Source: Candidatus Doudnabacteria bacterium
GTDB lineage: Bacteria; Patescibacteriota; Doudnabacteria; UBA920
NCBI GenBank assembly: GCA_016218585.1
Contig: JACRDK010000030.1
Span: 24,277-88,276 of the forward strand
Reading direction: 5' to 3'
DNA: 64,000 bases
In this document: positions 7,341-59,194 of the stretch, in pieces
Layout of the letters: each line of letters opens with the position of its first letter
Position numbering within the stretch: the stretch's first letter is position 1
Notes under the pieces: generated by a model
Databases searched by the model: none
What the model was told of the DNA's origin: nothing
What the model saw: only the letters and a program-made list of their open reading frames with translations
Program-made: the position numbers and the translations under genes

Positions 7341-7540
7341 TGGGCGCTTGTCAGATGAGTGTAATAACCCTGCCGGTGTCGCCCCGGAATTTTTAGCCTG
7401 CCCGCCGAAGCCTTGGCGAAGTTGGGGGTTGTAAAAATATTCGGGATCCGGAACTTGGCTTAAATACTGGATCCCGGCTCGGGAGCCGGGATGACACCAG
7501 GCTTAGGTTATTGGACTTACGTCTTGCCTGCTTGCATATT
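7341..7540. ncRNA. Candidate structured non-coding RNA of unknown family (GC-rich, multi-hairpin element between a terminator and the next promoter)
   Basis: A roughly 200-nt GC-rich block in an AT-rich intergenic region. Nested helices: cgggatcc...ggatcccg; cccggctc g gagccggg; caggc..gcctg; long-range pairing aataacc/ggttatt and ggtgtc/gacacc enclosing a multi-stem junction. The only ORF (7393-7587 minus) is low-complexity and improbable. No match to SRP RNA, tmRNA, RNase P or tRNA motifs that I could recognise. Confidence 0.35.
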
Positions 7541-24677: not shown

Positions 24678-25043
24678 ATGCAAATCAAAAGTTATAAAGA
24701 CTTAATTGTCTGGCAAAAATCAATGGATTTGGTAGTGGATATATATAAAATTTCTGAAAAGTTTCCTAAGGAAGAACTGTATGGGCTTACTTCGCAAATT
24801 CGAAGATGTGCAGTTTCAATCCCGTCAAATATCGCCGAAGGAAACAGAAGAGGTAGTAAAAAAGATTTTAGTCATTTCTTAACAGTTTCGTTTGGTTCGG
24901 GGTCTGAACTAGAAACGCAGATAGAAATTGTAAAGCGTTTACCATTTGGAAGTAATCTAGATTTTACAAAGATTGACGCATTATTATTAGAAATAATGAA
25001 AATGCTAAATAAGTTAATTGCAAGCCTACAACCTACTAACTAA
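24678..25043 (+). CDS. Four-helix-bundle protein of the 23S-rRNA intervening-sequence (TIGR02436-like) family, flanked by imperfect inverted repeats
   Basis: YKDLIVWQKSMDLVVDIYKISEKFPKEELYGLTSQIRRCAVSIPSNIAEG matches the four-helix-bundle family. The left flank gtagtttgtagttagtag (about 24646-24664) is inverted relative to the right flank ctactaactaattactac (about 25033-25052). Confidence 0.8.
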   Translation: MQIKSYKDLIVWQKSMDLVVDIYKISEKFPKEELYGLTSQIRRCAVSIPSNIAEGNRRGSKKDFSHFLTVSFGSGSELETQIEIVKRLPFGSNLDFTKIDALLLEIMKMLNKLIASLQPTN

Positions 25044-37618: not shown

Positions 37619-38311
37619 ATGGAACTTAAAAATAAAGTAATTGTTATAACTGGTTCTAGTAAAGGCTTAGGTAAGGGTTTGGCTAAGGCATTTATTCAAC
37701 ATGGTTCCATTGTTGTTTTAAATGGCAGAAATAAAACCGAGTTAGATTCAGCCGCTAAAGAGCTTAATTGCTTTGCGCTAGTTGGTGATGTCTCCAAAGA
37801 GCAGGAGCTTGAAAGTTTAAAAGATAAAGTGTTAGAGAAATATGGAAAAATTGACGTATGGATTAACAATGCGGGCTTTTGGATTCCGCGTTCTACGGTG
37901 GAAGATACTGACTGGGCCGGGGTTGCTCACAAATTGTTTGAGGTTAATTTTTTCGGAACAGTTTTTGGCTCTAAAGTTGCCCTAACACAAATGAGGCGTC
38001 AAGGTTCCGGCGTTATTATAAATATTTTATCAACTGGGGCATTGGATGGCAGAGAAAAATCTTCGGCTTATCGTTCAAGTAAATTTGCTGCTGCTGGCTT
38101 TACCAAGTGTTTAAGGAGAGAGCTTGCTGGCAGCGGAATATCAGCGCTTTCAATTTATCCCGGTGGAATGAAAACTAATTTATTTGATGCAGAGATTCCA
38201 GAAGACTTTGATAAATATATGGAAGTCGATTTTGTAGCAGACAAGATTCTAAATAATCTTTTGAGTGACAAATCGGAAGAAGAATTAATTATTGCCAGGC
38301 CAAATAGATAA
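37619..38311 (+). CDS. Short-chain dehydrogenase/reductase (SDR) family oxidoreductase
   Basis: KVIVITGSSKGLGKGLAKAF (TGxxxGxG), NNAG, catalytic YRSSKFAAAGF (YxxxK). Confidence 0.85.
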   Translation: MELKNKVIVITGSSKGLGKGLAKAFIQHGSIVVLNGRNKTELDSAAKELNCFALVGDVSKEQELESLKDKVLEKYGKIDVWINNAGFWIPRSTVEDTDWAGVAHKLFEVNFFGTVFGSKVALTQMRRQGSGVIINILSTGALDGREKSSAYRSSKFAAAGFTKCLRRELAGSGISALSIYPGGMKTNLFDAEIPEDFDKYMEVDFVADKILNNLLSDKSEEELIIARPNR

Positions 38312-42588: not shown

Positions 42589-44054
42589 ACGAACTTATAA
42601 ATTTGGAAGAAATTTTACAGCCCGGAGGAAAAATTTATTTTGTGGGAATTGGCGGCATTGCAATGTCTGCCGTTGCCGGTATGGCTGCCAAGCTTGGGTT
42701 TGAAGTGGCGGGGTCAGACAGTAAAGAGCTTTACTCGCCCTCAAAGGAGATTTTGGCCGAGCATAAAATAAATTGTTTTCTTGGTTATAAAGCGGAGCAG
42801 GTTGCGGAGGCAAAAGCTAATGTTTATGTTTTGTCGGCCGGGGAGAATGAAAATAATCCGGAAGTGGACTACATAATAAAAAACAATTTGCCTCGGGTGT
42901 CCTTTGCCGAGCTGCTCTATTTTTTTAGCAAAGACAGCTTAAGAGTTGTTGTTGCAGGCACGCACGGCAAATCCACCACTACCGGCCTGTTAGGGCATTT
43001 ATTTAAAAATTTGGACAACAGTTCCTTTTTAGCCGGAGGAGTTTTGCAAAATTACCAAAGCAATTTTTATTTGGGAGACGGCCACTATTTTGTTTTTGAG
43101 GGAGATGAATACAAGGCTCAGTTCGACGATCCGAGCCCGAAGTTCCATTATTACAAACCGGATATTTTAGTGCTTACCAATTTGGAGTATGACCACCCGG
43201 ATTTGTTCCCGAACTTTGAAAGTTTGCAAAGCGAGTTTAGGCTGCTAATTGAAAAAATGCCGGAAGACGGGCTGATTGTTTATAATGCGGATGACGCCGA
43301 ACTAAGCAAACTCGTTCACGAGTCCAATATTTCTACTGTGAGTTTTGGCATAGATAATGAGGCGGATGTAAAAACAGAGCAGATTCAGTTTGGCTCCGAT
43401 TTTACAACTATTGAAGTGCTAAATAAATTTTCAAAAAATGTCGCCACGCATTTAATGGGGCAAACCGAGCAGTATAAAATTCAGCTCCCAGGTAAAATAA
43501 ATGTTTATAATGCCTTGGCGGGAATTGCCCTGCTGCGTTCTTTAGGTTTTGCCCAGGAGCAAATTGCGTTGGAACTTTTAAGCTACCTAGGAATTAAAAG
43601 AAGATTTGAAGTCGTTTCTAAAAAGGGCGGCATTACCATTATTGACGACTACGCGCACCACCCAACCGCGGTAAGCGAAACGCTAAAAGCCGCTAAATTA
43701 AAGTACCCTGATTCTAAAATTTGGGCTGTATTTGAGCCTCACACCTTTAGCCGCACCAAAGCAACAATAAACGAGCTGGCGGCAAGTTTTGACCAGGCAA
43801 ATGAAGTGCTGTTGTCCGAAATTTATCCGGCCAGAGAAAAAGCCAGTACGGGCGGAATAACTTCCGGAGATGTAATAAATGCAATTAAGGAGCATAATAC
43901 AAAACACAAAATACATAATACAATAAGGCATGTTGCCGACAAAGAGCAGGCACTAAATATTTTGCGAGAAGAATTAAAATCCGGAGATGTTGTCATTATT
44001 ATGGCCGTTGGCGCCTTTAACCGCCTGGCCTATGAATTAAAGGAGATTATATGA
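42585..44054 (+). CDS. murC: UDP-N-acetylmuramate--L-alanine ligase (MurC; Mpl-type ligase not excluded)
   Basis: IYFVGIGGIAMSAVAGMAAKLGFEVAGSD, GTHGKSTTTGLL (P-loop), YNADDAEL; position between murG and murB. Confidence 0.8.
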   Translation: MNELINLEEILQPGGKIYFVGIGGIAMSAVAGMAAKLGFEVAGSDSKELYSPSKEILAEHKINCFLGYKAEQVAEAKANVYVLSAGENENNPEVDYIIKNNLPRVSFAELLYFFSKDSLRVVVAGTHGKSTTTGLLGHLFKNLDNSSFLAGGVLQNYQSNFYLGDGHYFVFEGDEYKAQFDDPSPKFHYYKPDILVLTNLEYDHPDLFPNFESLQSEFRLLIEKMPEDGLIVYNADDAELSKLVHESNISTVSFGIDNEADVKTEQIQFGSDFTTIEVLNKFSKNVATHLMGQTEQYKIQLPGKINVYNALAGIALLRSLGFAQEQIALELLSYLGIKRRFEVVSKKGGITIIDDYAHHPTAVSETLKAAKLKYPDSKIWAVFEPHTFSRTKATINELAASFDQANEVLLSEIYPAREKASTGGITSGDVINAIKEHNTKHKIHNTIRHVADKEQALNILREELKSGDVVIIMAVGAFNRLAYELKEII

Positions 44055-44542
44055 ACGAATTTGGTGGAACCATAAATGAAGAAAATATCAAAAACAATAA
44101 GCCAGCAAATAGAGCTGAGGAGCTGTATTCGGAGATGTTTACTGGAGAAGAGGATAAATTCCTCAAAAGCTACAAAACTTTAAGCAGAGAAGTTCCAGAA
44201 AAAATACAAAATGATAAACTAAAATATAATAGATTATCAAATGCGATATCCATTTTTGAGGAAAAATATTCTCACGACAAAGAAAAAACAATTAGAGATT
44301 TTGAAGATCATCTTTCAATAGAGTTAAGCGGGTTACTTACCTCAACCCCTGCTGGCAAGAGAGATAGTGATTATTTTAAATTAGTTGAAGTTATAAAATC
44401 AATAATTGATTCAACAAAAGACTTTAATGAGTTTGGCCTTAATGATTCCGACCATCTCTCTAAGGCAAAAGAAGAACTTAAAAGGCATCTGGAGGATATT
44501 GATAGAGATTTGAATCTGATAAACAAAAAGCAAAATAAATAA
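44051..44542 (+). CDS. Hypothetical acidic coiled-coil protein inserted between murC and murB (translationally coupled on both sides)
   Basis: 163-aa ORF, Lys/Glu/Asp-rich, no recognisable motif; ATGA overlap with murC and its stop immediately precedes the murB ATG. Confidence 0.5.
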   Translation: MNEFGGTINEENIKNNKPANRAEELYSEMFTGEEDKFLKSYKTLSREVPEKIQNDKLKYNRLSNAISIFEEKYSHDKEKTIRDFEDHLSIELSGLLTSTPAGKRDSDYFKLVEVIKSIIDSTKDFNEFGLNDSDHLSKAKEELKRHLEDIDRDLNLINKKQNK

Positions 44543-46084: not shown

Positions 46085-46162
46085 ATTCGTGGATTTTTGG
46101 TATAATTTAACCACTGTTTTGTGGGGAAATTCAAGAATTTTAGCATAAAAGAAAGGATATTA

Positions 46163-48901
46163 ATGTCATTTTTAACCAAACTTTTTACCGGAGAAACCAG
46201 TCCTTTAGAGAAGTATGCCAAAGAATTGCAGGAAGCAAACTCCTATAAAGAAGAAATTGCTGCGCTTACCCAGGATCAGATTAAGGCAGAAATTGAAAAA
46301 TTTAAGCAAGAACTTAAAAAGCTTGAGTCTGATAAAGAAGTTTTTGCTCATTTAACAAAAATTTCACCGCGGGTATTTGCAATAACCAGAGAAGCATCTA
46401 AAAGAAGCATTGGCCAATTCCATTACGACGTACAAATGGTTGGCGGCTTTGCTTTGGCCAGCAGCAAAATTGCTGAAATGAAAACCGGTGAAGGTAAAAC
46501 CCTTACCGCGACTTTGCCATTAGTGCTTTATGCCTTAGCAGGACGCGGCGCTCATTTGGTTACAGTTAACGATTATTTGGCCAGGTGGCAGGCTTCTTTA
46601 ATGGGGCCAATTTATAAGTACTTAGGCATGTCCGTAGCTTCCATTCAGCATGAAGCGTCTTTTATGTTTGACGACGGCTACCAGCCGGAAGCGGAAGAAA
46701 TAGAAAGGCTGGAAGGGGAGACGCAAGGATTGGTGCTGGACGTAAAACATATGCGCCCCATATCCAGGCGCGAAGCTTATGCCGCGGATATTACTTACGG
46801 CACGAACAACGAATTTGGTTTTGATTATTTGCGCGACAATATGGTGCAGAGCGTTCAGCAGCTGGTGCAGCGCGAATTATTTTTCTCTATTGTGGACGAA
46901 GTCGACAGTATTTTAATTGACGAGGCCAGAACCCCGTTAATTATTTCTATGCCGGACTCAGAGCCAACCAGCAAATATTATGAATTTGCTAAATTAGTTG
47001 ACCGCCTGCAGGAAGAAACAGATTACACGGTAGATGAAAAACATAAAGCCGCCTCTTTAACCGACGCCGGCATAAACAAAATTGAAGGTATTTTAAAAGT
47101 GCCTAATATTTATGACACCTCCAAGGGCGTAACCACTATTCACCACATTGAGCAGGCTTTGCGCGCCAGGACTTTGTTTAAAAAAGATCGCGACTACGTG
47201 GTTAGCGAAGGTGAAATTATTATTGTAGATGAATTTACCGGCAGATTAATGTTTGGCCGTCGTTATAGCGAAGGTTTGCACCAGGCAATAGAAGCTAAAG
47301 AAAATGTGCAAATTCAGCAGGAAAGCAAAACCTTAGCCACAATTACCTTCCAAAACTTATTCCGTTTGTATAAAAAACTTTCCGGTATGACCGGTACCGC
47401 TAAAACGGAAGAAGAGGAATTCTTTAAAATTTATCAGCTTACTGTAGAACAGATTCCAACCAATAAGCCAAATGTCAGGCAAGATTTGTCCGACGCGGTT
47501 TATAAAACGGAAACCGCCAAATTTAAAGCTATTGCCCAGGAAGTAAAGGCTCGCTACAAAAAAGGCCAGCCAGTGTTAATTGGTACAGTTAGTATTGCTA
47601 AAAATGAAATTTTGGCAGACTTCTTAAAACAGGAAGGCTTGCCCTTTGAAATTTTAAACGCCAAAAACCACGAACGTGAAGCGCATATTATTTCCCAAGC
47701 AGGACGCCCGGGGCAAATAACGCTTGCCACCAACATTGCCGGACGCGGGGTAGACATTTTGCTTGGCGGCAACCCGGTAGACCAGGAAGAGGCCGCAAAA
47801 GTCAGGGAAGCCGGCGGTTTGCATATTTTAGGAACAGAGCGCCATGAGTCGCGCCGTATAGACAACCAGTTGCGCGGACGCGCCGGACGCCAAGGCGACC
47901 CCGGAAGTTCTCAGTTCTTTGTGTCTATGGAAGACGACCTAATGAGGCTATTCGGCGGCGACCGGATGAAGAGCTTAATGAATACTTTGGGTTTGCCCGA
48001 TGACCAGCCGGTAGAAGCTAAAATGGTTTCCAGAAGCATTGAACAGGCGCAAAAGAAGATTGAAGGATTGAACTTTGATACCAGAAAACATGTTTTGGAA
48101 TTTGACGATGTTTTAAACCATCAACGCAATATAATTTATAAAAAGCGCCGCGGTTTTTTGGTTGGCACCGAAGAGAGCAAGAAGACAGATTTGAAACAGG
48201 AAATTCTAGGGATGGCCAAGGACGAACTGGTTGAAGTCGCTGAATTTAACTTAAACCAGTTAGACGAGCACGGAGGGAAAAAAGAAGACTGGGCGAATTT
48301 GTTTAAGACTGTTGGCACAATGGTGCCGGTTGATCAAAAATTGATAGATAAGGTTAAGGAAGCCGCTAAGGACGCGGCAGACAGAGAATTTGCGGTTGCC
48401 GATACCTTCTACAAAGCGGTAGAAGAAAACTGGGAAGCCAAAGAAAAAGAAATGGGCAAAGAAGTGTTTGAGGGAGCACAGAGATTTGTTGCCCTGCAAT
48501 CTTTAGACAATCTTTGGATGGAACATTTGGACACAATGGATCATTTGCGCGACAGCGTCCGCCTTCGCGGTTATGGGCAACGCGATCCGTTGGTGGAATA
48601 TAAAAAAGAAGGCTATGTAATGTTCCAGAATTTGGTAAAGGAAATGAATAAACAAATTGTTTATACCATTTTCCATATTACCGTTCAGGTAAACCAGCAG
48701 CCAAACCAGCAAAAACCGCTTAAGGATTTGGTAACCAGTTCAGCGAGTGGCTCAATGCAAACCGGCGGGCAAACAGATCCAAAATACGAAGGCGTAGGCC
48801 GCAACGACCCCTGCCCATGTGGAGCGATAAATCCTGAAACAGGCAAGCCATATAAGTTCAAGCGTTGTGGGATGATAAACGCTAGCTACCATAAAAAATA
48901 G
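46163..48901 (+). CDS. secA: Preprotein translocase ATPase SecA (start placed at MSFLTKLF; the ORF track gives an upstream ATG at 46121)
   Basis: MSFLTKLFTGE... N-terminus typical of SecA, DEAD-like motor (MKTGEGKTLTATLP, VDEVDSILIDEARTPLIIS), C-terminal Zn finger CPCGAINPETGKPYKFKRCG. Confidence 0.95.
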   Translation: MSFLTKLFTGETSPLEKYAKELQEANSYKEEIAALTQDQIKAEIEKFKQELKKLESDKEVFAHLTKISPRVFAITREASKRSIGQFHYDVQMVGGFALASSKIAEMKTGEGKTLTATLPLVLYALAGRGAHLVTVNDYLARWQASLMGPIYKYLGMSVASIQHEASFMFDDGYQPEAEEIERLEGETQGLVLDVKHMRPISRREAYAADITYGTNNEFGFDYLRDNMVQSVQQLVQRELFFSIVDEVDSILIDEARTPLIISMPDSEPTSKYYEFAKLVDRLQEETDYTVDEKHKAASLTDAGINKIEGILKVPNIYDTSKGVTTIHHIEQALRARTLFKKDRDYVVSEGEIIIVDEFTGRLMFGRRYSEGLHQAIEAKENVQIQQESKTLATITFQNLFRLYKKLSGMTGTAKTEEEEFFKIYQLTVEQIPTNKPNVRQDLSDAVYKTETAKFKAIAQEVKARYKKGQPVLIGTVSIAKNEILADFLKQEGLPFEILNAKNHEREAHIISQAGRPGQITLATNIAGRGVDILLGGNPVDQEEAAKVREAGGLHILGTERHESRRIDNQLRGRAGRQGDPGSSQFFVSMEDDLMRLFGGDRMKSLMNTLGLPDDQPVEAKMVSRSIEQAQKKIEGLNFDTRKHVLEFDDVLNHQRNIIYKKRRGFLVGTEESKKTDLKQEILGMAKDELVEVAEFNLNQLDEHGGKKEDWANLFKTVGTMVPVDQKLIDKVKEAAKDAADREFAVADTFYKAVEENWEAKEKEMGKEVFEGAQRFVALQSLDNLWMEHLDTMDHLRDSVRLRGYGQRDPLVEYKKEGYVMFQNLVKEMNKQIVYTIFHITVQVNQQPNQQKPLKDLVTSSASGSMQTGGQTDPKYEGVGRNDPCPCGAINPETGKPYKFKRCGMINASYHKK

Positions 48902-49035
48902 AGTGAAATCGGCCGGAGCTTTAGCGAAGGTGGACGGCAGCGGAAAAAAGTTTAAGAAATGCCACGGGAAGTAGGAGACAGGTAAAATGGTAAAATGAAA
49001 GAGAGGTCAGACGACTGTCCAACCTCCCCAGTTTT

Positions 49036-49215
49036 CTACCGATGTTCGGTTATGGCGACACACGTGTGTTCACCTATGAGTTTCGAGTAATACATCGCCG
49101 TTACCCGTAACTCCGCGTGTTTGCCGCAAAATTGCGACATCGCTTCGGCGAGAGTTTTACCGCTCCATCTAACTTCCCACACGCCATTACCGTAGTCCTT
49201 CTCGATATAATCCAT
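49036..49215 (-). CDS. Hypothetical 59-aa protein encoded on the minus strand inside a GC-rich cassette with a perfect sigma-70 consensus promoter
   Basis: Manual translation: MDYIEKDYGNGVWEVRWSGKTLAEAMSQFCGKHAELRVTAMYYSKLIGEHTCVAITEHR. Upstream on the minus strand: TTGACA-N17-TATAAT and SD aaaggag 7 nt before ATG. About 55% GC. Preferred over the overlapping + strand track ORF 49117-49359. Confidence 0.45.
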   Translation of the reverse strand: MDYIEKDYGNGVWEVRWSGKTLAEAMSQFCGKHAELRVTAMYYSKLIGEHTCVAITEHR

Positions 49216-49334
49216 TTCCCGCTCCTTTTAGATTTTCATATAATTATAGCATATAATTATAAATCTGTCAATATGAGGGAAAAGCCCCTTAAAAAATGGG
49301 TAAATCGTGTGTTTAAGGAAAAAATGGAAAAAAT

Positions 49335-49886
49335 ATGCAATTTAATGAAGATAAGCTAATTGAAATAGCAAAACCCTACTTTAATAGAGCCAGGGCAGGT
49401 GATTGGAATCATGCTGTTAGAGTGGTAAAATGGGTAAAAGAACTTGGAAAAGGCAGGGCAGACTTGGATACTTTGGTTACCGCCGCCTATCTTCATGATG
49501 TTGGTTGGTCGAGCGTTGCCCCCAAAGATAAGCTGAACTTAGATGAAATGTTGTTGCTGGAAAATCAGGCAAATAAAAATTCGAGTATAAAAGTAAAAGA
49601 AGTGCTAGGGCAATGTGCTTTTGCGAGCATAGATATTAATTCTGTAATTAGGCTAATTGGAGCGGCTGATAAACACTCATCTGAAAAGGAAGACGAAGCC
49701 ATTATTGTTGATGCTGATAGTTTAAGCAAATTATGCATAGAACATCTTCAAGAAAAGTATCAAAAAAACAGCTTCATAAAAGTGCTAAAACTGTGGGATG
49801 ATGAACTAAAAACCAGAGTAAAGACAGAAAAGGCCAAAGAGTTGTTTCCAAAATTGCTAATTGATTTGAAAGGTAAGTTAATTTAA
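49335..49886 (+). CDS. HD-domain metal-dependent phosphohydrolase
   Basis: NHAVRVVKWVKELGK...LVTAAYLHDVGW (H...HD motif); 183 aa. Confidence 0.8.
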   Translation: MQFNEDKLIEIAKPYFNRARAGDWNHAVRVVKWVKELGKGRADLDTLVTAAYLHDVGWSSVAPKDKLNLDEMLLLENQANKNSSIKVKEVLGQCAFASIDINSVIRLIGAADKHSSEKEDEAIIVDADSLSKLCIEHLQEKYQKNSFIKVLKLWDDELKTRVKTEKAKELFPKLLIDLKGKLI

Positions 49887-49933
49887 TATCGTATAAGCCT
49901 AATATGAAAGTTTTTTGACTTCGAGTCATAAAT

Positions 49934-50329
49934 ATGTCAAATGTAATGGAAAAAATAGGTAATGCAGACAATTTAATAAAAGAAGCTAAATCAATTATTG
50001 ATTTGAGGTATAAAAAAGGTGCGCATTCAGTGGGTGCAGCCTTAAGAACAAAATCGGGAAAGATTTACACAGGCATAAGCATAAAAGGTTTAAAGTTGGA
50101 TTTGTGCTCAGAATGGACTGCAATAGGCAGAGCATTTGTTGAAGGAGAAACGGAAATTGAATCTATCGTTGCGGTTCACAGAAAAGAAGATGGAACTTTT
50201 GAATTTTTCCCGCCTTGCGGATTATGCAGAGAGCTGTTAACTAAATATTGTCCCGATGCTTTGGTCATATTTTCAGAAAATGAATTTAAAAAAGCATCAG
50301 ACTTATTGCCGTCAGCCTGGAAAAGATAA
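49934..50329 (+). CDS. cdd: Cytidine deaminase (small tetrameric CDA-type zinc deaminase)
   Basis: CSEWTAIG (the C/H-A-E motif equivalent) and PPCGLCRELL (PCxxC zinc ligands); 131 aa. Confidence 0.75.
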   Translation: MSNVMEKIGNADNLIKEAKSIIDLRYKKGAHSVGAALRTKSGKIYTGISIKGLKLDLCSEWTAIGRAFVEGETEIESIVAVHRKEDGTFEFFPPCGLCRELLTKYCPDALVIFSENEFKKASDLLPSAWKR

Positions 50330-50331
50330 AT

Positions 50332-50979
50332 ATGAATAACATACCAGTTGAACAACTAGCAAAAAAGATATGGGAGTATCATCATCTTAATCACAAACTT
50401 TCAAAGGCAGATTGCATACTAGTTTTGGGGAGTCATGATATTAGGGTTGCTGTTCGGGCCGCAGAATTATTTTTAGAAGGGTATGCGCCATTAATGGTAT
50501 TTTCTGGAGGTTATGGACGACTAACTCAAGGTTTGTGGAATGAACCGGAAGCAATTGTTTTCTCAAAGATTGCTATTGAAATGGGGGTGCCAAAAGATCA
50601 AATAATTATTGAGGATAAATCTACAAACACGGGAGAGAATATAGTATTTACAAAAAAGTTGTTAGAAGAGAAAGGCATAAATCCCAAAACAATCATCTTG
50701 GTTCAAAAGCCGTATATGGAGCGAAGAGCTTACGCAACGTTTAAGAAATTTTGGCCGGAAAAAGATTGCATTGCAACTTCCCAGCAAGTTTCGTTTGATG
50801 ATTATCCGACAAAAGATATTAGTAAGGATGATTTAATTAGCATTTTGGTTGGCGATTTACAGCGAATCAAAACGTATCCGGAAAAAGGTTTTCAAATTCA
50901 TCAGGAAATTCCGGATGACGTATGGAGTGCATATGAACTATTAGTTAAAGCAGGTTACAATAAATACTTAACAAATTAA
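50332..50979 (+). CDS. DUF218 / YdcF-SanA family protein
   Basis: CILVLGSHDIRVAVRAAELFLEGYAPLMVFSGGYG... matches the YdcF-like Rossmann fold family. Confidence 0.7.
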   Translation: MNNIPVEQLAKKIWEYHHLNHKLSKADCILVLGSHDIRVAVRAAELFLEGYAPLMVFSGGYGRLTQGLWNEPEAIVFSKIAIEMGVPKDQIIIEDKSTNTGENIVFTKKLLEEKGINPKTIILVQKPYMERRAYATFKKFWPEKDCIATSQQVSFDDYPTKDISKDDLISILVGDLQRIKTYPEKGFQIHQEIPDDVWSAYELLVKAGYNKYLTN

Positions 50980-50999
50980 TTAATTTATAAAGGAAAAAT

Positions 51000-51299
51000 A
51001 TGGGAAACGATTATTTGAAGAGAGAACCAAGCAAAACAGAAAAAATGATTTACGAGCTTGTAATGGCGCAGAACTCTATGGAAAAGGGTTTGTGGTCTAC
51101 TTCCAGCTTAGTTATGGTTTTAGCAATTTTAACCAAGCAAGATCCAAAAGCTATTGCTGAATTAATGGTAAATGGCGACGAAAAATTAAGAGAATTTAGC
51201 GGGAAAATTAACGAAGAAATTAAAAAGTTAGAAGAAGAAAAGCATAAAGGCCACGATCACGCTAAAGAAGAAAAACCAGCCGAAGAAGCCAAGGCCTAA
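51000..51299 (+). CDS. Hypothetical small protein (Lys/Glu-rich C-terminus)
   Basis: 99-aa ORF, no motif recognised. Confidence 0.45.
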   Translation: MGNDYLKREPSKTEKMIYELVMAQNSMEKGLWSTSSLVMVLAILTKQDPKAIAELMVNGDEKLREFSGKINEEIKKLEEEKHKGHDHAKEEKPAEEAKA

Positions 51300-51313
51300 C
51301 CAAAAATTAAACC

Positions 51314-51401
51314 CACTATATTACTATATTGTAATATAGTGAAAATAAAAAAATTCACAACAAAATTAACAGGCACTCTATTACTCCAGTGTAATAGACT
51401 G
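51314..51401. promoter_or_regulatory. Pair of related palindromic operator-like sites (CAC-T[A/C]TATTAC-N6-GTAATA[T/G]A[G/C]-TG), centres 60 bp apart, immediately upstream of the NUDIX gene
   Basis: Site 1 at 51314-51341 cactatattac tatatt gtaatatagtg is perfect. Site 2 at 51374-51401 cactctattac tccagt gtaatagactg has one mismatch. Both are 11-6-11 inverted repeats. Confidence 0.55.
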
Positions 51402-51411
51402 ATAAGAAAAT

Positions 51412-51840
51412 ATGGAGCAAGGAAATCAGCAAAGACCAATAGTCGGTATAGGCGTGATGCTTTTTAAAGATGGAAAAATTTTATTGGGTAAAAGAAAGGG
51501 TCATGTTGGTTTTGGCACGTATGGCTGGCCAGGTGGCAAGCAAGAGTTTAAGGAATCTTTTGCAGCTTGTGCCAAGCGAGAGGTTATGGAAGAAGCCGGA
51601 ATCGAAATTAGCGATATAAAATTTTTAAGGCTGATGAACTACATTTCTGAAAACGGAACTCATTTTTGCGATATTCAATTAACTGCTCAATGGTTTTCCG
51701 GAGAGCCTAAAACATTAGAATCAGACAAATGCGAAGGCTGGCAATGGTATAATATAAATAATTTACCCGAGCCGATGTTTGAACCGACGATAACCGCCAT
51801 CGAAGCGTATAAAACAGGAAAAAACTTTTTTGACAACTAA
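51412..51840 (+). CDS. NUDIX hydrolase
   Basis: Nudix box GWPGGKQEFKESFAACAKREVMEEAGIEI (Gx5Ex7REUxEExGU). Confidence 0.85.
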   Translation: MEQGNQQRPIVGIGVMLFKDGKILLGKRKGHVGFGTYGWPGGKQEFKESFAACAKREVMEEAGIEISDIKFLRLMNYISENGTHFCDIQLTAQWFSGEPKTLESDKCEGWQWYNINNLPEPMFEPTITAIEAYKTGKNFFDN

Positions 51841-51842
51841 TT

Positions 51843-52421
51843 ATGAAATACATAATTTTTTCAGGGACAACAGGCTCGGGAAAAGATACTATAATTAACA
51901 GGTTGCATGAAGATTTAAAAAACCTTCAAATTGAGCCAGTTAAAAGAGCTTGGTATTATACAACAAGAAAGGTTGACCGAAAGGGTGAAAACCCTAATAG
52001 GAAAGACAAAATTAGCGATGAGGAATTCAATGAAAAAGTATCAAAGGGTGAAATTATTTTAGATCATAAAAATTCAAATTATCAAGTTGGTTATCCGTCA
52101 GAAATTCTAAACGAAAAGTCAGGAATTATTATATTTAATATAGCTGTGTGGGCGGCAAAGCAACTTCAGGATTATGCTTTACAAAATGATGGACGTGCCG
52201 TAACTATTTTTTTAGATGCTCCTAAGGAACAGCGGATTGGTAGAATTAAACATCGGGATGGGTTGAGCGCTGACGAGTCCGTGATTTTTAAGGTTGAAAA
52301 CGATATAACAAAATCTGAACATGCAACAGGATATAATTTAGTAGTTCAAAATAAAGATGGCGATTTGGAAAAAAATTACGAGATTATTTTAAGTAAGGTT
52401 AAAGAATTTTTAAATGCTTAA
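51843..52421 (+). CDS. Guanylate-kinase-like P-loop nucleoside monophosphate kinase (paralog 1)
   Basis: P-loop FSGTTGSGKDT; YTTRKVDRKGENPNRKDKISDEEFNEKVSKGEIILDH...NYQVGYP parallels the guanylate kinase TTR.pR.gE..G.dY.F.s.eeF...GeflE.a...gn.YGT region. Confidence 0.65.
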   Translation: MKYIIFSGTTGSGKDTIINRLHEDLKNLQIEPVKRAWYYTTRKVDRKGENPNRKDKISDEEFNEKVSKGEIILDHKNSNYQVGYPSEILNEKSGIIIFNIAVWAAKQLQDYALQNDGRAVTIFLDAPKEQRIGRIKHRDGLSADESVIFKVENDITKSEHATGYNLVVQNKDGDLEKNYEIILSKVKEFLNA

Positions 52422-52959
52422 ATTTATTACCGGAAATAAAACAAAGTTTAATGAGGTGCAAGCGGCTCTCGCGCCTATTAAGGTTGAACAAATTAATATA
52501 GATTTACACGAAATTCAAGAAGTTGATCCTAAAAAGATAATTGAACACAAGCTAAAAGAAGCCTTTAATCATTATAAGGGCGAATTTATTATAGATGACA
52601 GCTCTTTATTTTTAAGCTGTTTTAATTACAAGCTTCCCGGCCCGTTGATAAAATGGTTTAATGATTCTATTGGCACAAAAAAGATTTATGAAATGTGCAA
52701 AAAAATGGGTGACCAAAAAGCCAGAGCCACAACCTTTATTGGGTACGCAAAAAGTCCTAAAGAAATTGAATTTTTTGAAGGAACGATGAATGGCAAAATT
52801 ATAAAACCAAAAGGTAAATATAATTTTGGCTACGACCCGATTTTTGTGCCAAACGGCAAAAAAGAAACCCTCTCGCAAATGAAAGCGTCTGGAAATTTTT
52901 TTAGTAGCCCCCGCGGGTTAGCGGTATTAAAGTTGAAAAAATATTTAAGTGTTAAATAG
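52414..52959 (+). CDS. rdgB: Ham1/RdgB-family non-canonical purine NTP pyrophosphatase (ITPase)
   Basis: FGYDPIFVPNGKKETLSQMKASGNFFSSPRGLAVLKL matches the ITPase C-terminal signature (FGYDP.F.P.G...T.AEM....K...SHRG.A); N-terminal ITGNKTKF. Confidence 0.8.
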   Translation: MLKFITGNKTKFNEVQAALAPIKVEQINIDLHEIQEVDPKKIIEHKLKEAFNHYKGEFIIDDSSLFLSCFNYKLPGPLIKWFNDSIGTKKIYEMCKKMGDQKARATTFIGYAKSPKEIEFFEGTMNGKIIKPKGKYNFGYDPIFVPNGKKETLSQMKASGNFFSSPRGLAVLKLKKYLSVK

Positions 52960-52962
52960 AAT

Positions 52963-53562
52963 ATGAAGATTATTATTATTTGTGGTCCTACAGCCTCGGG
53001 CAAAGATTCTGTAATAGATGAAATGTATAGGGAACTAAATCAAGAGTATCCTGGAAAAGTATCACAGGCAACTTACTTTAAAACAAGGGCTGCCAGACCA
53101 CAGGAGAAAATAGACAAATATTTTATTTCTGAAGAAGAGTTTGAGAAAAAAAGAGGTTCAGGGGAAATTCCAGATGAATTTTGGGGAGAGGTAAGTAATT
53201 ATCGCGTGGGGTATTCAATTAATGAGTTTACAAAATCAGAAATTGTTTTAGTAAATATTGATGACAAAAAAGCTAGAAATTTAAAAGAAGTTGCCCAACA
53301 AAGCAACAACGAAGTTCTTTCTATATTTTTACATGCCCCGGAGGAAGTAAGAAAACAAAGATTTATGTCCCGTGAAGGATGGCTAATTTACGAACCTGCT
53401 GAATATAGGTTAAGTCATGATGTCACAGACCCTAATCCTGAAAATCACAAAGATTTTGATCTGATTGTGGAAAATAAAGAAGGTGCGTTGGCGGAAACAA
53501 TGAAGGAAATTATGCCCGCGGTAAAAGAGTTTGTTGAATCAAATAAAACAATTAAAAATTGA
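52963..53562 (+). CDS. Guanylate-kinase-like P-loop nucleoside monophosphate kinase (paralog 2)
   Basis: P-loop CGPTASGKDS; FKTRAARPQEKIDKYFISEEEFEKKRGSGEIPDEFWGEVSNYRVGYS; divergent paralog of 51843-52421. Confidence 0.65.
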   Translation: MKIIIICGPTASGKDSVIDEMYRELNQEYPGKVSQATYFKTRAARPQEKIDKYFISEEEFEKKRGSGEIPDEFWGEVSNYRVGYSINEFTKSEIVLVNIDDKKARNLKEVAQQSNNEVLSIFLHAPEEVRKQRFMSREGWLIYEPAEYRLSHDVTDPNPENHKDFDLIVENKEGALAETMKEIMPAVKEFVESNKTIKN

Positions 53563-53567
53563 GATAA

Positions 53568-56168
53568 ATGAAATCAGTTAGACTTTCAAGCCATATAAAG
53601 CCCGAACGATACCGATTGTTTATTAAACCAGATTTAAAGAGGTTTATTTTTGAGGGTGAAGAAACGATTTATCTTAATATTGAAAAACCGGTAAATGAGA
53701 TTACACTTCATACTAAAGAGCTTAAAATTTTGCAGGCAAAATTTAGAATCAAAAATTATGAATTAAGAATTAAGAATAGGGACATACGGTACAACGAGCA
53801 GAATCAAACCGTAACATTTAAGTTAAAACAAACAGTTAAAGCGGGGAAAGGGGAGTTGTCTTTAAAGTTTACCGGCATTTTAAACGATAAAATGAGAGGT
53901 TTTTACAGAAGCCAGTATAAGTCCAAAAACCAGCAAAAACACCTTGCTACAACGCAATTTGAGGCCACAGATGCACGCAGGGCTTTCCCATGCTTTGACG
54001 AGCCCAGCGCCAAGGCTATTTTTGACGTCACCTTAATGGTTCCAAAAAAGTTAGCTGTGGTTTCCAACACAATTGAATCTGAAGTTTTAGAGCACCAAGG
54101 TGAATATAAAACCGTTAAGTTCGCGCCAACGCCAAAAATGTCTACCTATTTATTAGCGTTCATTGTTGGCGACTTGGAATATATTGAAGGCAGAACGCGG
54201 AACAGCGCGGAAAAGGCCGGCAGCGCGGAACAGCGCGGAAAAAATACAAATTCCGGTACGCTAGTTAGAGTCTTTACCACGCCGGGCAAAAAGCACCAGG
54301 CAAAATTCGCGCTCGACACCGCAATCCGCTGCTTGGAATTTTATAACAGCTATTTTGATATTCCATATCCGCTGCCGGTTTTGGATTTAATTGCCATTCC
54401 GGATTTTAACAGCGCCGCTATGGAAAATTGGGGCGCGATAACTTACCGCGAGTCAGCCTTGCTGATTGACGAAAAGAATTCATCTCTGTCTTCTAAACAG
54501 TGGGTGGCAATTGTAATTGCCCACGAAATTGCGCACCAATGGTTTGGCAATTTGGTAACAATGGAGTGGTGGACGCATTTGTGGCTAAACGAAGGCTTTG
54601 CTTCCTATATGGAATATTTATGCACCGACAAATTATTCCCGCAATGGAATATGTGGGAGCAATATGTGGCGCAAAGATTCAACACCGCGCTGGAACTGGA
54701 CTCGCTTACCAACACCCATCCAATTGAAGTTGAGGTTCACCACCCGGAGGAGATTAGCGAAATTTTTGACGCGGTGTCTTATGCTAAAGGTTCGGTAGTT
54801 ATCCGCATGCTGGCAGAATATTTGGGCGAGAAAACTTTTCGCGACGGTTTAAGATATTATTTAAAAAAACATTCCTACCAAAATGCTTCAACCATACATT
54901 TGTGGGAAGCGTTTGAAAAAGTTTCCGGAAAACCGGTAAAAAAGTTAATGCTTAATTGGACTTCCGCGCCCGGATATCCGCTAGTTCGAGTTGTGGAAAA
55001 AGAAAAGCAGTTAGTATTAATGCAGTCTCGCTTTTATTCCAGCGCGATTTCCAAAGCATCGTCTACAGACAAAACCATTTGGCAAATTCCTGTTACCATT
55101 AAAAACGGCAAAAAAATTTCCAAACATTTATTGGGGGCGAAGTCAATTAAAATTCCTAAAACCTCCAAAACCTGGATTAAATTAAACGCCGGGGAAACTT
55201 CGTTTTTTAGAACCGATTATCCGGCGCAAATGCTTGGCGCTTTGAGCAATGGGTTGCCCCAGCTTTCAGCCATAGACAGGCTTGGCGTGGTAAGGGATGC
55301 GTTTACTTTGTCCGAGTCGGGAGATTTACCCGCCACGCAAGCTTTGGAGTTGGTTAAACATTTTAAAAATGAAAAAGACTACAATGCCTGGCTAATGATT
55401 TGTTTTGGCCTTGGGAACATTGGCGGCCTGGCCCGCAACTTAAAATCTTACCCGCTCTATGAAAAGTTCGCTTTAGGAATAATTCAAAATATTTTGCAGA
55501 CGGTCGGGGTCAAAGAGGCAAAAGGCGAAACCGGCGCCCAGGTGCTTTTGCGCAGCTTAATTTTGCAGCAAGCGGTAAAATGGGGCGATAAAAAAACAGT
55601 TGCCTGGGCTTTGGCGCAATTTAACAAAAACTCTCCGGTCCCCGTAAATTTGCGTTCTGTTGTTTATTTTGCCGCCGCCCAGTTTGGTTCAAGCAAGGAG
55701 CATGCAAAGTTAGTTAAAATGTACACCCAAGAGGAGATGCAGGAAGAAAAAGACCGAATAGGCAGAAGCCTGGCGCATTTTAAAAATCCGGAATTATTAA
55801 AAAAGACTTTGGCCTTTGCTTTAAGCAAACAGGTAAGAGACCAGGACGCGCCGTTTATTATTGCCGCGGTTTTCCGCAACTGGGCAGGAAGCGCCATTGC
55901 CTTGGATTTTGTTAAAAAGCATTGGGGTGAGCTGCTTAAGCGCTACGCTTCTGGCTTGAGCATGATTTCCAGAATAATCGGCACAATGGATAATTTTTAC
56001 TCGGAAGAAAAAGCAAAAGAAATAGAAAAGTTTTTTAAAGCACATAAAGCTCCAGGAGCGAAGCGTTCTATTAAACAAACCTTGGAAAAAATTCGCTCAC
56101 AGGCGGCCTGGCTTAAGCGCGACGGCAAACCATTGGACAACTGGTTATTAAAACAAAATGAAAAATAA
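53568..56168 (+). CDS. pepN: Aminopeptidase N (M1 family zinc metallopeptidase)
   Basis: GAMEN exopeptidase motif (AAMENWGAITY), HEIAHQWFGNLVTMEWWTHLWLNEGFASY (HExxH-x18-E), ERAP1-like C-terminal domain. Confidence 0.9.
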   Translation: MKSVRLSSHIKPERYRLFIKPDLKRFIFEGEETIYLNIEKPVNEITLHTKELKILQAKFRIKNYELRIKNRDIRYNEQNQTVTFKLKQTVKAGKGELSLKFTGILNDKMRGFYRSQYKSKNQQKHLATTQFEATDARRAFPCFDEPSAKAIFDVTLMVPKKLAVVSNTIESEVLEHQGEYKTVKFAPTPKMSTYLLAFIVGDLEYIEGRTRNSAEKAGSAEQRGKNTNSGTLVRVFTTPGKKHQAKFALDTAIRCLEFYNSYFDIPYPLPVLDLIAIPDFNSAAMENWGAITYRESALLIDEKNSSLSSKQWVAIVIAHEIAHQWFGNLVTMEWWTHLWLNEGFASYMEYLCTDKLFPQWNMWEQYVAQRFNTALELDSLTNTHPIEVEVHHPEEISEIFDAVSYAKGSVVIRMLAEYLGEKTFRDGLRYYLKKHSYQNASTIHLWEAFEKVSGKPVKKLMLNWTSAPGYPLVRVVEKEKQLVLMQSRFYSSAISKASSTDKTIWQIPVTIKNGKKISKHLLGAKSIKIPKTSKTWIKLNAGETSFFRTDYPAQMLGALSNGLPQLSAIDRLGVVRDAFTLSESGDLPATQALELVKHFKNEKDYNAWLMICFGLGNIGGLARNLKSYPLYEKFALGIIQNILQTVGVKEAKGETGAQVLLRSLILQQAVKWGDKKTVAWALAQFNKNSPVPVNLRSVVYFAAAQFGSSKEHAKLVKMYTQEEMQEEKDRIGRSLAHFKNPELLKKTLAFALSKQVRDQDAPFIIAAVFRNWAGSAIALDFVKKHWGELLKRYASGLSMISRIIGTMDNFYSEEKAKEIEKFFKAHKAPGAKRSIKQTLEKIRSQAAWLKRDGKPLDNWLLKQNEK

Positions 56169-56752: not shown

Positions 56753-57448
56753 ATGAATATTCAATTTAAAATTTTTAAAAACTTTCCCGAAGTTCGCTGC
56801 GGCTTGTCGCAAAAAGTAGACGGCAGTATGGGTTTGTCGTCCCAAAAAATGTCCGGCAATTTTAAAACCTTTTTTCGCAAGCAGGGGATTAGCCCCGACC
56901 AGGTTGTCCGCGCGGGGTTGGAGCATAAAGACCGGGTTGCTAAATCGGGCCCGGATAGCGCGGGAAAAACCATACCTCACTGCGACGCCCTTCATACAAC
57001 AGAAAAGAATCTTTGCCTTAGCGTAACCGTTGCCGATTGTTATCCAATTTATTTTTTTAATCCCGAAAACGGAAAAGTCGCCATTGCACACAGCGGTTGG
57101 AAAGGCTGCGTAAGCGGATTATTGCCGGCTTTGGTTAAAACTTTATCAACCAATCCGGAAAGGCTGCTTGTAGGAGTTGGCCCGGGAATCGGACCGTGTC
57201 ATTTTGAAATTCAAAATGATATTTTGTCGGAGTTTAATAACTTTTCCAGCGCGGTTAGTTTTAAAGACGGAAAAATATTTGTTGATTTGCCAAAAATTAT
57301 TAGAATTCAGTTAGAAAAAGCCGGCGTCTTGGCCGAAAATATTGAATTTTTTAACGAATGCACTGCTTGCTTGCCCGGAAGCTATTTTTCCTATCGCCGG
57401 GACAAACCAAAAGAGCTGGAAACCATGGTGGCATATATTTATCTTTAA
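56753..57448 (+). CDS. pgeF: Peptidoglycan editing factor PgeF / YfiH (DUF152, Cu-oxidase_4) family
   Basis: CDALHTTEKNLCLSVTVADCYPIYFF...VAIAHSGWKG (ADCxP and HxGWRG-like motifs), C-terminal Cys (ECTACLPGSYFSYRR). Confidence 0.85.
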   Translation: MNIQFKIFKNFPEVRCGLSQKVDGSMGLSSQKMSGNFKTFFRKQGISPDQVVRAGLEHKDRVAKSGPDSAGKTIPHCDALHTTEKNLCLSVTVADCYPIYFFNPENGKVAIAHSGWKGCVSGLLPALVKTLSTNPERLLVGVGPGIGPCHFEIQNDILSEFNNFSSAVSFKDGKIFVDLPKIIRIQLEKAGVLAENIEFFNECTACLPGSYFSYRRDKPKELETMVAYIYL

Positions 57449-57490: not shown

Positions 57491-59194
57491 ATGGTAGTTA
57501 ATAGAGAATCAGGGATTCTTTCCGGCTTAAAAGATGAACTCTCAGAAGCAAGTCGAAAGAGCAGGGAAGAGCTCCGGTCTAAAAAACAAAATATTGTTGG
57601 AGAACGCATGCAAGAGCTTGTCGAGGCGCAAAAAAACATGAATGCGCTGCTTGTTAAAATTTATGAAAAAGTATGCGGGAACACCGGCTCTAATAGCTCA
57701 GAAATTCTAATGGAACTAGCCAAAGAGCAAAAAGATAATGTTGCGGCTCTGGGTCCGGGAGCTTCAATCGCCCTTGAAAATGCGCTATTAGAATATTCCA
57801 AGCTACACGACAAGGTCGGGTTTTATTATAGGCAATATGAACAAAAGCCGGAAGAGCTTTTTGAAAAATGTTTTGGCAAAAAACCGGAGGGGAAGGTGCA
57901 ATTAATTTTAGGACCAATGACAATATGTTTTCGTTGTTTTAATGAGCAAGACTACATTTTTGCCTATACAAACTACAAACACGAAGACACAAGCATCAAC
58001 GATGTTGAAAAAGCTAAAAAAAGCCAAGGGGCAGCTTTCCCAACATGTAAAGTTAGTGATTTATCAAATTGTGTAATTATAGAAAAAGCGAGTAATAATT
58101 TTGGATTTGTTGACAAAATAAAACAAAATAAAATTGAAATTAAAAAAGGGTCAAAAACTAGGGTTGAATTTTCAGACTTAAATCTAAACGGGACAGTTTT
58201 TTGGTATGTTGAAGGCGAGATAATGTACCAACTAACTTTTCAAACAAAAAAAGGCAGGGTTAGCGGTGTAAATCTTTATGATCCAAAAAATGACAATTTT
58301 ATTTTTTTGGATAAGCAAATTGATTCGTCGCCCGACGAACGCATAGTTTTTCCGGCCGAGAAGTATAGGGAAACAGAGTACCTTGATATAGAATTTGATG
58401 ACAGAGGTTTTTCAATTGTTGATCATAGCAGGAAAAAGCAACTTTTAAACTATGAGGTTTTAAGCGGAAGAAAAATTGTTGTAAAGGATGAGTCGCTTTC
58501 AAAAAGGGTGAGAAGGCATGAAGAGCAGCATCAGTTTAATAAACTTTTTGTGCCTAAAGAACATTCAGAAATACCCCCAAGCTTAATTAAGAGCCTGAGC
58601 AAAACCGCGTTGATAAATATGGACAGGGCTGAAGCTCAAAGAGCAAAGGTTAAAATTATAGAAGCCTTAGTTAGGCATTACAGGAGAATGTACGTAGATT
58701 TTAGAGCGAGAGATGAAATAATTGCTTATTATAGGGATGGTAGTGATATTAAGGCTATTGAAGATCTGTTAAAAAATAGTTCATTATATGACTACAAATC
58801 TGCAGATATTACGTTAGAAAGTGGAAAAAAAATTCCAATACAGCAATGGTTGGAAAATTTACTTAAAAATGATTTAGGCGCCGGTCGGCTTGCCCGGTAC
58901 ACTGAGTATAGCAAGGACAAAAAGGATTTTGCTAAAAGAAGTAGCTTGAATTTTTACGCAGGTCATTTATTTTTTGAGCGGGAAATTAAAGACTCTCTTC
59001 AGTCAATTTTTGTTTCAGACTACAATCGGTCAATTGATGAGTGGTTAGAACAAATCAAAAATTTAGAAAAACTTGGCTATGGTCGCCAGCAAATTGTTGC
59101 TTTTTGTAACATGTTGCCTGCGAGAGCTTGGAAATCTTTTGTTTTGAGACTTAGCCGTCATGGGCAAAAGGCAAAGAAAGAGCAGGTAGCCTAA
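57491..59194 (+). CDS. Large hypothetical cytoplasmic protein (567 aa), no recognisable domain
   Basis: Long ORF with local codon usage and no TM segments. An isolated HEEQH (HExxH-like) pentad at about residue 350 is of doubtful significance. Confidence 0.55.
   Translation: MVVNRESGILSGLKDELSEASRKSREELRSKKQNIVGERMQELVEAQKNMNALLVKIYEKVCGNTGSNSSEILMELAKEQKDNVAALGPGASIALENALLEYSKLHDKVGFYYRQYEQKPEELFEKCFGKKPEGKVQLILGPMTICFRCFNEQDYIFAYTNYKHEDTSINDVEKAKKSQGAAFPTCKVSDLSNCVIIEKASNNFGFVDKIKQNKIEIKKGSKTRVEFSDLNLNGTVFWYVEGEIMYQLTFQTKKGRVSGVNLYDPKNDNFIFLDKQIDSSPDERIVFPAEKYRETEYLDIEFDDRGFSIVDHSRKKQLLNYEVLSGRKIVVKDESLSKRVRRHEEQHQFNKLFVPKEHSEIPPSLIKSLSKTALINMDRAEAQRAKVKIIEALVRHYRRMYVDFRARDEIIAYYRDGSDIKAIEDLLKNSSLYDYKSADITLESGKKIPIQQWLENLLKNDLGAGRLARYTEYSKDKKDFAKRSSLNFYAGHLFFEREIKDSLQSIFVSDYNRSIDEWLEQIKNLEKLGYGRQQIVAFCNMLPARAWKSFVLRLSRHGQKAKKEQVA

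Follow-up and report, generated by a model that had tools for sequence, protein, structure and literature searches.

A putative nucleotide-sanitation and salvage cluster with two divergent guanylate-kinase-fold proteins in a variable secA–pepN slot of a Doudnabacteria genome

The closest described counterpart of the two proteins considered here is guanylate kinase (GK; Gmk, or Guk1 in yeast; PF00625, TIGR03263; PDB 1GKY, 1EX7, 2AN9). These two proteins, K1 and K2, are the first and second GK-like kinases of an eight-gene run on the + strand of contig JACRDK010000030.1 of Candidatus Doudnabacteria bacterium (positions 49335–53562 of the 64-kb stretch analysed, hereafter the window). With Gmk, K1, K2 and their relatives (the K family) have in common the three-part fold and a length of ~190–200 aa, and they keep the P-loop Lys, R38, R41, E44, R131, R135 and a basic residue at position 146 (yeast Guk1 numbering), but the guanine-recognition residues are replaced. 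The K family also differs in its P-loop (GKD[ST] rather than GK[ST]T), in a longer LID with a conserved E-P-x-E...D...E motif, in gene context (Ham1/Nudix, as opposed to yicC-gmk-rpoZ/priA) and in that its genes are accessory and patchy in distribution. Another described GK-fold enzyme, the ribose 1,5-bisphosphate phosphokinase PhnN (TIGR02322), has an acceptor that is not a nucleotide. Two further genes of the run belong with the house-cleaning nucleoside triphosphate (NTP) pyrophosphatases (RdgB/Ham1 inosine triphosphate pyrophosphatase, or ITPase; MutT/NUDT15/NUDX1): its Ham1 and Nudix proteins are ordinary members by sequence and sit together, as expected for purine-pool sanitation, although both score under the NCBIfam equivalog cut-offs.

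Bacteria of the candidate phyla radiation (CPR) cannot make nucleotides and live on scavenged ones. Phosphorylation of guanosine monophosphate (GMP) is a gap in several CPR lineages reported to be without a recognisable Gmk, namely in Microgenomatia (PMC9166423) and in strain OT8 (bioRxiv 10.64898/2026.06.21.733656). With its intact core, rebuilt base pocket and purine-sanitising neighbours, the K family would be a concrete candidate for the missing activity or for a new specificity; otherwise the locus is ordinary housekeeping, and the main value of the analysis lies in a corrected annotation of K1 and K2, which NCBI lists as ‘AAA family ATPase’ and ‘hypothetical protein’ respectively. An earlier, sequence-only reading of the window had described the run as a compact nucleotide house-cleaning and salvage cluster of eight co-directional genes with short or overlapping junctions. 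The open reading frames (ORFs) and their junctions are as it described them, profile searches bear out all of its domain calls, and these assignments agree with house-cleaning and salvage enzymes. We count the superfamilies of all eight genes, and the concept of such a cluster, as already established. What appears from the sequences to be new is a small GK-fold subfamily that lacks the substrate-recognition residues of Gmk and is linked to an ITPase and a Nudix gene in a variable slot. The literature that we consulted on Gmk in CPR genomes, in a search not aimed at linkage, contained no account of Ham1 or Nudix genes linked with a GK-fold kinase, and we know of no such description.

A full-length comparison of K1 and K2 gives 36% identity (E 6e-31); their P-loops, GTTGSGKDT and GPTASGKDS, are just as the sequence-only reading had quoted them. 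Both exceed the Pfam domain cut-off of PF00625 (25.2 bits; scores in the table below), while against TIGR03263 they reach 42.6 (K1) and 48.4 bits (K2), compared with a cut-off of 160.45. A canonical Gmk met incidentally in one related locus (L019, in the context yicC-gmk-priA) scores 164.8 bits against PF00625, such that true Gmk proteins lie at 160–165 bits and the two kinases at 30–48. The view that they are divergent and not canonical Gmk is thus upheld. The AlphaFold2 (AF2) model of K2 has a mean predicted local distance difference test score (pLDDT) of 91.7, and a Foldseek comparison with the PDB returned guanylate kinases as the best matches (template modelling, TM, score 0.71–0.76, E 6e-12); the top 50 matches are all of the GK fold, comprising guanylate kinases and one MAGUK GK domain. 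As modelled, then, K2 carries the GK fold, with its P-loop core, an inserted nucleoside monophosphate (NMP)-binding domain and a LID. Profile–profile alignment (hhalign) of the K family gave a probability of 97.7 (E 2.4e-12) with yeast Guk1 and of 94.9 (E 4.4e-8) with E. coli PhnN.

To compare active sites, functional positions of yeast Guk1 were mapped onto 136 aligned sequences, with MAFFT and hhalign in agreement. Residues K14, R38, R41, R131 and R135, which serve phosphoryl transfer and phosphate binding in Guk1, vary hardly or not at all, each being kept in at least 11 of 12 members of each K clade. E44, a conserved part of the GMP-binding motif, is Glu in the K family save for two members with Asp, and R146, a basic residue of the LID, is Arg in the K2 clade and Lys in the K1 clade. 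The positions that recognise GMP are another matter: S34, which recognises guanine or GMP, has become Tyr; E69, which specifies guanine, is Leu or Phe; Y78, which binds the GMP phosphate, is Val; and S80 (Ser or Thr), which together with D100 recognises guanine, is Tyr. D98, a conserved Asp, is Asn, and D100 is kept in the K2 clade only. In addition, the residue that follows the Walker A Lys is Asp in the K family and Ser or Thr in Gmk. Because the catalytic machinery is intact, we consider kinase activity likely for both K1 and K2; because the guanine-reading residues are gone, their acceptor is uncertain. Compared with Gmk, the acceptor pocket appears richer in aromatic and hydrophobic residues, and specificity would therefore differ from that of Gmk; K1 and K2 probably differ in specificity from each other as well, in line with the different substrate specificities suggested by the sequence-only reading.

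The likeness to PhnN is one of motifs only. On the one hand, the P-loop of E. coli PhnN (GPSGSGKDS) is nearly the same as that of K2, and PhnN and the K family share Y-x-V-G (N-Y-Y-G in Gmk), an Asn at the position of Gmk D98, N-x-x-G-x-L near the C-terminus and the absence of E69. On the other hand, R41/E44, a motif kept in the K family, is missing from PhnN, the K-family profile matches it more weakly than it does Gmk, the two kinases score only 29.2 and 35.4 bits against TIGR02322 (cut-off 156), and no phn genes were found near K1 or K2.

Among all profile libraries, the best match to both kinases, over their full length, is a phage guanylate kinase family (phrog_1815; 58.6 and 64.2 bits), and the alignments with phage Gmk models are as good as those with cellular Gmk structures (TM 0.70–0.76). 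The sequence-only reading had called the P-loops close to those of phage deoxynucleoside monophosphate (dNMP) kinases, and the T4-type enzyme shares the SGKDT P-loop with K1. This closeness did not survive comparison: the T4-type family (phrog_139) matches residues 1–27 of K1 only and K2 not at all, its BFVD model aligns with a TM score of 0.43 as against 0.7–0.76 for Gmk, and GSGKDS is equally present in E. coli PhnN. We therefore reject a relationship with T4-type dNMP kinases, the match being confined to the P-loop. A phage origin of the kinases was likewise rejected, as a search of IMG/VR returned no K-family relatives and the 50,697 phage records of INPHARED a single weak match (24.8% identity). 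Searches of PADLOC-DB gave weak generic matches only (VakA, 23 bits; PtuA, 15 bits; PDC-S07 Nudix, 47 bits) and no partner genes. A defence system is rejected on these grounds, and the resemblance to nucleotide-depletion defence modules, already termed superficial in the sequence-only reading, goes no further than generic Nudix and P-loop similarity.

The K family is small. Searched exhaustively with a profile, 1.84 billion representative proteins yielded 26 relatives at E ≤ 1e-30, 313 representatives at E ≤ 1e-10 and 6,224 at E ≤ 1e-3, so few even at the loosest threshold that most canonical Gmk sequences must go undetected by the profile. Members with a named source are all from Patescibacteria or Doudnabacteria, in clusters of one to three sequences, and pattern scans of genome contigs and of metagenome contigs were poor in yield (one true relative each) because the family is rare. 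The nearest relatives of K1 are 66% and 44% identical, whereas K2 has orthologues of 75–80% identity in the same Ham1-K2-pepN position. Between genomes in which SecA is 68–76% and Ham1 50–58% identical, the kinases are only 29–44% identical; the family thus evolves fast. The K-family profile also matches the long proteins P0047, P0066, P0069, P0081 and P0083 (750–1825 aa), in each case at two to five separate places, and these may be multi-GK-domain proteins.

In a neighbour-joining tree (100 bootstraps), the K2 clade received 94/100 support and the K family as a whole was separated from more Gmk-like sequences with 76% support, while the placement of K1 within the family was not fixed by any grouping tried (≤ 13% support). 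K1 and K2 were sisters in none of the 100 bootstraps. A recent tandem duplication is rejected on this result and on the 36% identity of the pair, and with it the description of the kinases as ‘duplicated’ falls. The tree and the distribution of orthologues point instead to K2 as the resident copy and to K1 as another member of the family that diverged from it long ago, an additional, accessory kinase gene that has been inserted between Nudix and Ham1.

Two samples of related loci were drawn, one via the kinases and the other, to avoid kinase sampling bias, via unk99, the 99-aa protein of the run. Contigs sampled via the kinases have a common backbone, murB-hpf-secA ... pepN-(ykuD)-(pgeF or sua5)-secD-secF-sigma, and differ in their small-gene content between secA and pepN. 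The slot reads Cdd-unk99-Nudix-Ham1-K2 in L007 (K2 75% identical), where Nudix and Ham1 are directly adjacent, without an intervening kinase, and two unknowns-unk99-Ham1-K2 in L005 and L006 (K2 77% identical). Other arrangements are HIT-Nudix-CYTH-unk99-TrpR-Ham1-kinase-Nudix (L002), unk99-DUF1653-DHH-Nudix-Ham1-UDG-kinase (L009, UDG being uracil-DNA glycosylase), CYTH-Nudix-kinase (L016) and unk99-unknown-kinase-Ham1 (L017). The kinase adjoins Ham1, Nudix or UDG in seven of seven arrangements and overlaps its neighbours similarly in L002 and L009. K1 was not found in the closest relatives.

Sampling via unk99 also brought up slots of another kind. L022, on an 811-kb contig (JAXOUH010030583.1, GCA_034680565.1), reads secA-unk99-Ham1-UDG-pepN, as does L025; L027–29 read secA-unk99-Nudix-Ham1-pepN; and L023 presents an extreme pyrophosphatase expansion, with five separate Nudix genes, a HIT hydrolase and Ham1 between positions 7540 and 12875. 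No GK-like kinase was found by tblastn in the fetched stretches of L022, L023, L025 and L027–29, which represent four lineages (the contig of L023 ends before pepN). Together, unk99, usually Nudix, and Ham1 make up the backbone of the slot, and the remaining genes of the run (HD, Cdd, DUF218 and the kinases) are accessory. The slot has been refilled repeatedly with nucleotide-handling enzymes, which supports a functional theme but not the fixed ‘core module’ for nucleotide import and processing envisaged by the sequence-only reading: its HD and DUF218 genes occur in no related locus, K1 is missing from the closest relatives, and four lineages are without a slot kinase. Of the two outcomes that this reading had named as refuting it, tight clustering of both kinases with canonical Gmk and scattering of the genes in related genomes, neither was seen: the kinases stand apart from canonical Gmk, and the Nudix/Ham1/kinase neighbourhood recurs in relatives. 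More generally, secA–pepN illustrates a slot of variable gene content within reduced genomes that are highly syntenic elsewhere.

Conservation in the slot is highest for unk99, which has 97 clusters at 56–91% identity and a copy in every related locus that extends that far. W32-S33-T34-S35 is invariant within a near-invariant GLWSTS, MVNGD is near-invariant, and the C-terminal tail is variable and His/Asp-rich, with HDH repeats, which suggests metal binding. An AF2 model (pLDDT 71.6) consists of three helices. Neither the family profile libraries nor, for the model, the folds of the PDB gave a match; unk99 represents an uncharacterised Doudnabacteria family and deserves a name.

Within the window, the run has junctions of, in order, +47, +2, +20, +112, +2, -8 (the K1/Ham1 overlap) and +3 bp (coordinates in the table). 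Its co-directionality is uninformative because every real-looking ORF of the window lies on the + strand. The spacing, with the 8-bp K1/Ham1 overlap and gaps of 2–5 bp, points to translational coupling, and the 112-bp gap, which holds two palindromes, divides the run into HD-Cdd-DUF218-unk99 and Nudix-K1-Ham1-K2. On the 3' side the spacing stays tight, with pepN only 5 bp away and overlapping ykuD by 11 bp, and then a Cu-oxidase_4/PgeF gene, so that the border at 53562 is functional, not structural. An identical pepN gene in L001 encodes Peptidase_M1 domains, and the protein is 51–76% identical across relatives. The eight genes form the longest block in the window of low G+C content at third codon positions (GC3, range 0.25–0.36), with a mean of 0.307 as compared with 0.430 for the other 44 ORFs (Mann–Whitney p 5.6e-6). 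The lowest values in the cluster are those of K1 (0.249), K2 (0.255), Cdd (0.280) and DUF218 (0.296), and HD stands at 0.321.

Table 1. The eight-gene run, its borders and the palindrome pair (positions in the window).
Feature	Position	Strand	Remarks
secA	46121..48901	+	926-aa ORF; upstream border of the variable slot; SecA of relatives 68–81% identical, in the same position
HD-domain phosphohydrolase, 183 aa	49335..49886	+	PF01966, 24.6 bits
Cytidine deaminase (Cdd), small tetrameric type, 131 aa	49934..50329	+	PF00383, 29.3 bits
DUF218/YdcF-like protein, 215 aa	50332..50979	+	PF02698, 76.3 bits
unk99, small helical protein, 99 aa	51000..51299	+	no family match
Palindrome pair	51319..51396	none	TATTAC-N5-TGTAATA, twice
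Nudix hydrolase of the NUDX1/NUDT15/MutT kind, 142 aa	51412..51840	+	PF00293, 55.3 bits
K1, GK-fold kinase, 192 aa	51843..52421	+	PF00625, 33.1 bits
Ham1/RdgB-type ITP/XTP pyrophosphatase, 181 aa	52414..52959	+	PF01725, 123.2 bits
K2, GK-fold kinase, 199 aa	52963..53562	+	PF00625, 30.5 bits
pepN, M1 aminopeptidase	53568..56168	+	866-aa ORF, 5 bp after K2; downstream border of the slot

With moderate confidence, we read the run as a sanitation and salvage operon in a variable secA–pepN slot, with accessory (d)NMP kinases of altered specificity. The region would be part of a constitutive, co-transcribed stretch that collects small enzymes for cleaning and recycling the nucleotide pool: Nudix and Ham1 would hydrolyse purine (d)NTPs that have been oxidised or deaminated, yielding (d)NMP and pyrophosphate, Cdd would convert (deoxy)cytidine to (deoxy)uridine and so feed salvage, and K1 and K2, as ATP:(d)NMP phosphotransferases, would bring salvaged monophosphates back into the pool of diphosphates. 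Several points weigh against such a reading. Operon structure is read from spacing alone, in a genome where spacing is tight throughout, and the pocket positions come from alignments of sequences and profiles rather than from coordinates. The theme misses part of the eight genes, since YdcF and unk99 are without a known nucleotide link. Synteny was seen among fairly close relatives only, all sharing the murB-secA...pepN-secDF backbone, and common descent could account for part of the clustering. Finally, an ITPase beside an NMP kinase makes no obvious direct metabolic coupling, because re-phosphorylation of IMP or XMP (inosine and xanthosine monophosphate) would be counter-productive. That these are, more radically, unrelated small genes that came to adjoin by chance in a compact, co-directional genome seems to us very improbable: while all window ORFs are on the + strand, the tight junctions run on into pepN, ykuD and pgeF, DUF218 and unk99 lack a nucleotide link, and relatives do not conserve the set of eight as a whole, six of its members nonetheless act on nucleosides or nucleotides, the same slot is elsewhere refilled with HIT, CYTH, UDG, DHH and extra Nudix genes, and a kinase was next to Ham1, Nudix or UDG wherever its arrangement was seen (7/7).

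A different possibility is that K2, and perhaps K1 too, is simply this lineage's very divergent housekeeping Gmk and the cluster plain housekeeping. Profile and fold searches always gave Gmk as the best match, none of the catalytic and phosphate-binding residues has been lost, and many CPR proteins are very divergent; the absence of a recognisable Gmk from some CPR makes a divergent substitute plausible. Nor does the window contain a canonical Gmk: tblastn with E. coli and yeast queries for gmk, adk, tmk, cmk and ndk matched only K1 and K2 there, and gave no match in the eight loci L022–L029. However, position 69 is hydrophobic in both clades and S34, Y78 and S80 are replaced as well; the kinases evolve faster than Ham1 and SecA of the same genomes, which is unusual for an essential enzyme; no such kinase occupies the slot of four related lineages, one of them on the 811-kb contig; the family is tiny next to the co-located unk99 family; and two copies would be redundant. 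We therefore think a housekeeping Gmk unlikely. It is quite improbable, in our judgement, that the run is a horizontally exchanged accessory islet engaged in conflict with phages or hosts (through modified nucleotides, nucleotide depletion or counter-defence). The low GC3, lowest in K1, K2, Cdd and DUF218, would fit such an islet, as would the patchy, fast-evolving kinase, slot content that changes between close relatives (HIT, CYTH, UDG, DHH, up to five Nudix) and the phrog_1815 scores of 58–64 bits for both kinases, which exceed the 30–33 bits of Pfam Guanylate_kin. Yet defence profiles gave nothing beyond weak generic matches, the slot is bordered or invaded by no integrase, transposase, toxin or tRNA, the viral collections contributed only the single weak match described above, the deaminase is a Cdd and not a dCTP deaminase, and the backbone of unk99, Nudix and Ham1 is vertically conserved. 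A more far-reaching reading, which we put forward tentatively and regard as possible but doubtful, is that the K family constitutes a new GK-fold specificity class, with the catalytic core kept, an acceptor pocket rebuilt with aromatic residues, mobility within the Doudnabacteria slot and different substrates for K1 and K2. Such a class could comprise broad-range (d)NMP kinases filling the ‘missing Gmk’ gap of some CPR, or enzymes with a non-standard acceptor, be it deoxy- or modified purine monophosphates released by Nudix and ITPase or a PhnN-like sugar bisphosphate.

The Nudix box GX5EX7REUXEEXGU is complete and reads GGKQEFKESFAACAKREVMEEAGI; the closest solved relatives are Arabidopsis NUDX1 (100.8 bits) and human NUDT15 (74 bits), which would assign the protein to the MutT/NUDX1/NUDT15 group of enzymes sanitising 8-oxo-dGTP or modified purine dNTPs. 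Nudix orthologues of 40–72% identity are present in L002, L007, L009, L016, L023 and L027. Ham1 matches PF01725 across residues 4–177, that is, over its full length, remains below the TIGR00042 cut-off (115.2 versus 145.35 bits), and is found in nearly all related loci at 48–79% identity. The cytidine deaminase is of the small Cdd type, as the sequence-only reading had it: its length of ~130 aa and its C-[AS]-E and P-C-x-x-C motifs are those of the tetrameric enzymes, and its best solved relative is B. subtilis CDA (53 bits), whose zinc motifs CAE and PCGAC align with CSE and PCGLC. It falls short of two equivalog cut-offs (NF005314, 96.5 versus 131 bits; a second model, 60.7 versus 74), and an orthologue in L007 is 77% identical.

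The HD and DUF218 genes are accessory to the slot. In the HD protein, H26, H54-D55 and a D126/D128 motif are legible in the translation and the PF01966 score is just over the cut-off of 22 bits; searches by sequence found no solved relative, and tblastn no match in 28 related loci. DUF218 has YdcF (3ca8, 43 bits) as its solved relative and no evident nucleotide link, and it was found in none of the related loci; in L007, unk99 stands directly 3' of Cdd.

The palindromes TATTAC-N5-TGTAATA in the 112-bp gap 5' of the Nudix gene lie at 51319–51336 and 51379–51396, 60 bp apart. They are the only two sites of this kind in the whole window, where 0.19 would be expected by chance, and no shuffle reached that count. 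The pair was not found in related loci (29 compared). Intergenic gaps, palindromes included, gave no Rfam match at E ≤ 1, on which basis a riboswitch or other known RNA in these gaps is ruled out. The palindromes may be a candidate operator pair, or hairpins, that would split the cluster into two units.

Elsewhere in the window, further isolated ORFs of low GC3 lie at 24678–25043 (0.262), 44051–44542 (0.268, no Pfam match), 37619–38311 (0.294) and 57491–59194 (0.324, no Pfam match). At the other extreme, the ORFs at 1307–2668 and 13695–14282 have a G+C content of 0.564 and 0.541 (0.41 window-wide) and a GC3 of 0.63 and 0.61.

Just upstream of the run, a 59-aa ORF at 49036–49215 is the sole minus-strand gene nearby and has no Pfam match. 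It is preceded by a perfect sigma-70 consensus promoter with a TG extension (TTGACA-17-TATAAT, 49271..49243) and followed by a terminator with a 13-bp stem (49029..49000). Because an 88% identical copy occurs in L022 between secA and unk99 (9438–9611), we consider it a real, conserved small gene. Downstream, 3' of pepN and ykuD, the Cu-oxidase_4 gene (YfiH/PgeF/LACC1-type) spans 56753–57448, and some relatives have a Sua5/YrdC gene instead; descriptions of the Cu-oxidase_4 family include both an enzyme of purine-nucleoside metabolism and a factor for peptidoglycan editing. Further 3', beyond the sigma-factor gene, relatives encode a DUF8128 protein and then a VirD4/TraG-like coupling ATPase (DUF87/TrwB; L007, 9578–12622; L022, 18410–20279; L027, 18656–20381), a conserved module that resembles type IV secretion or DNA uptake.

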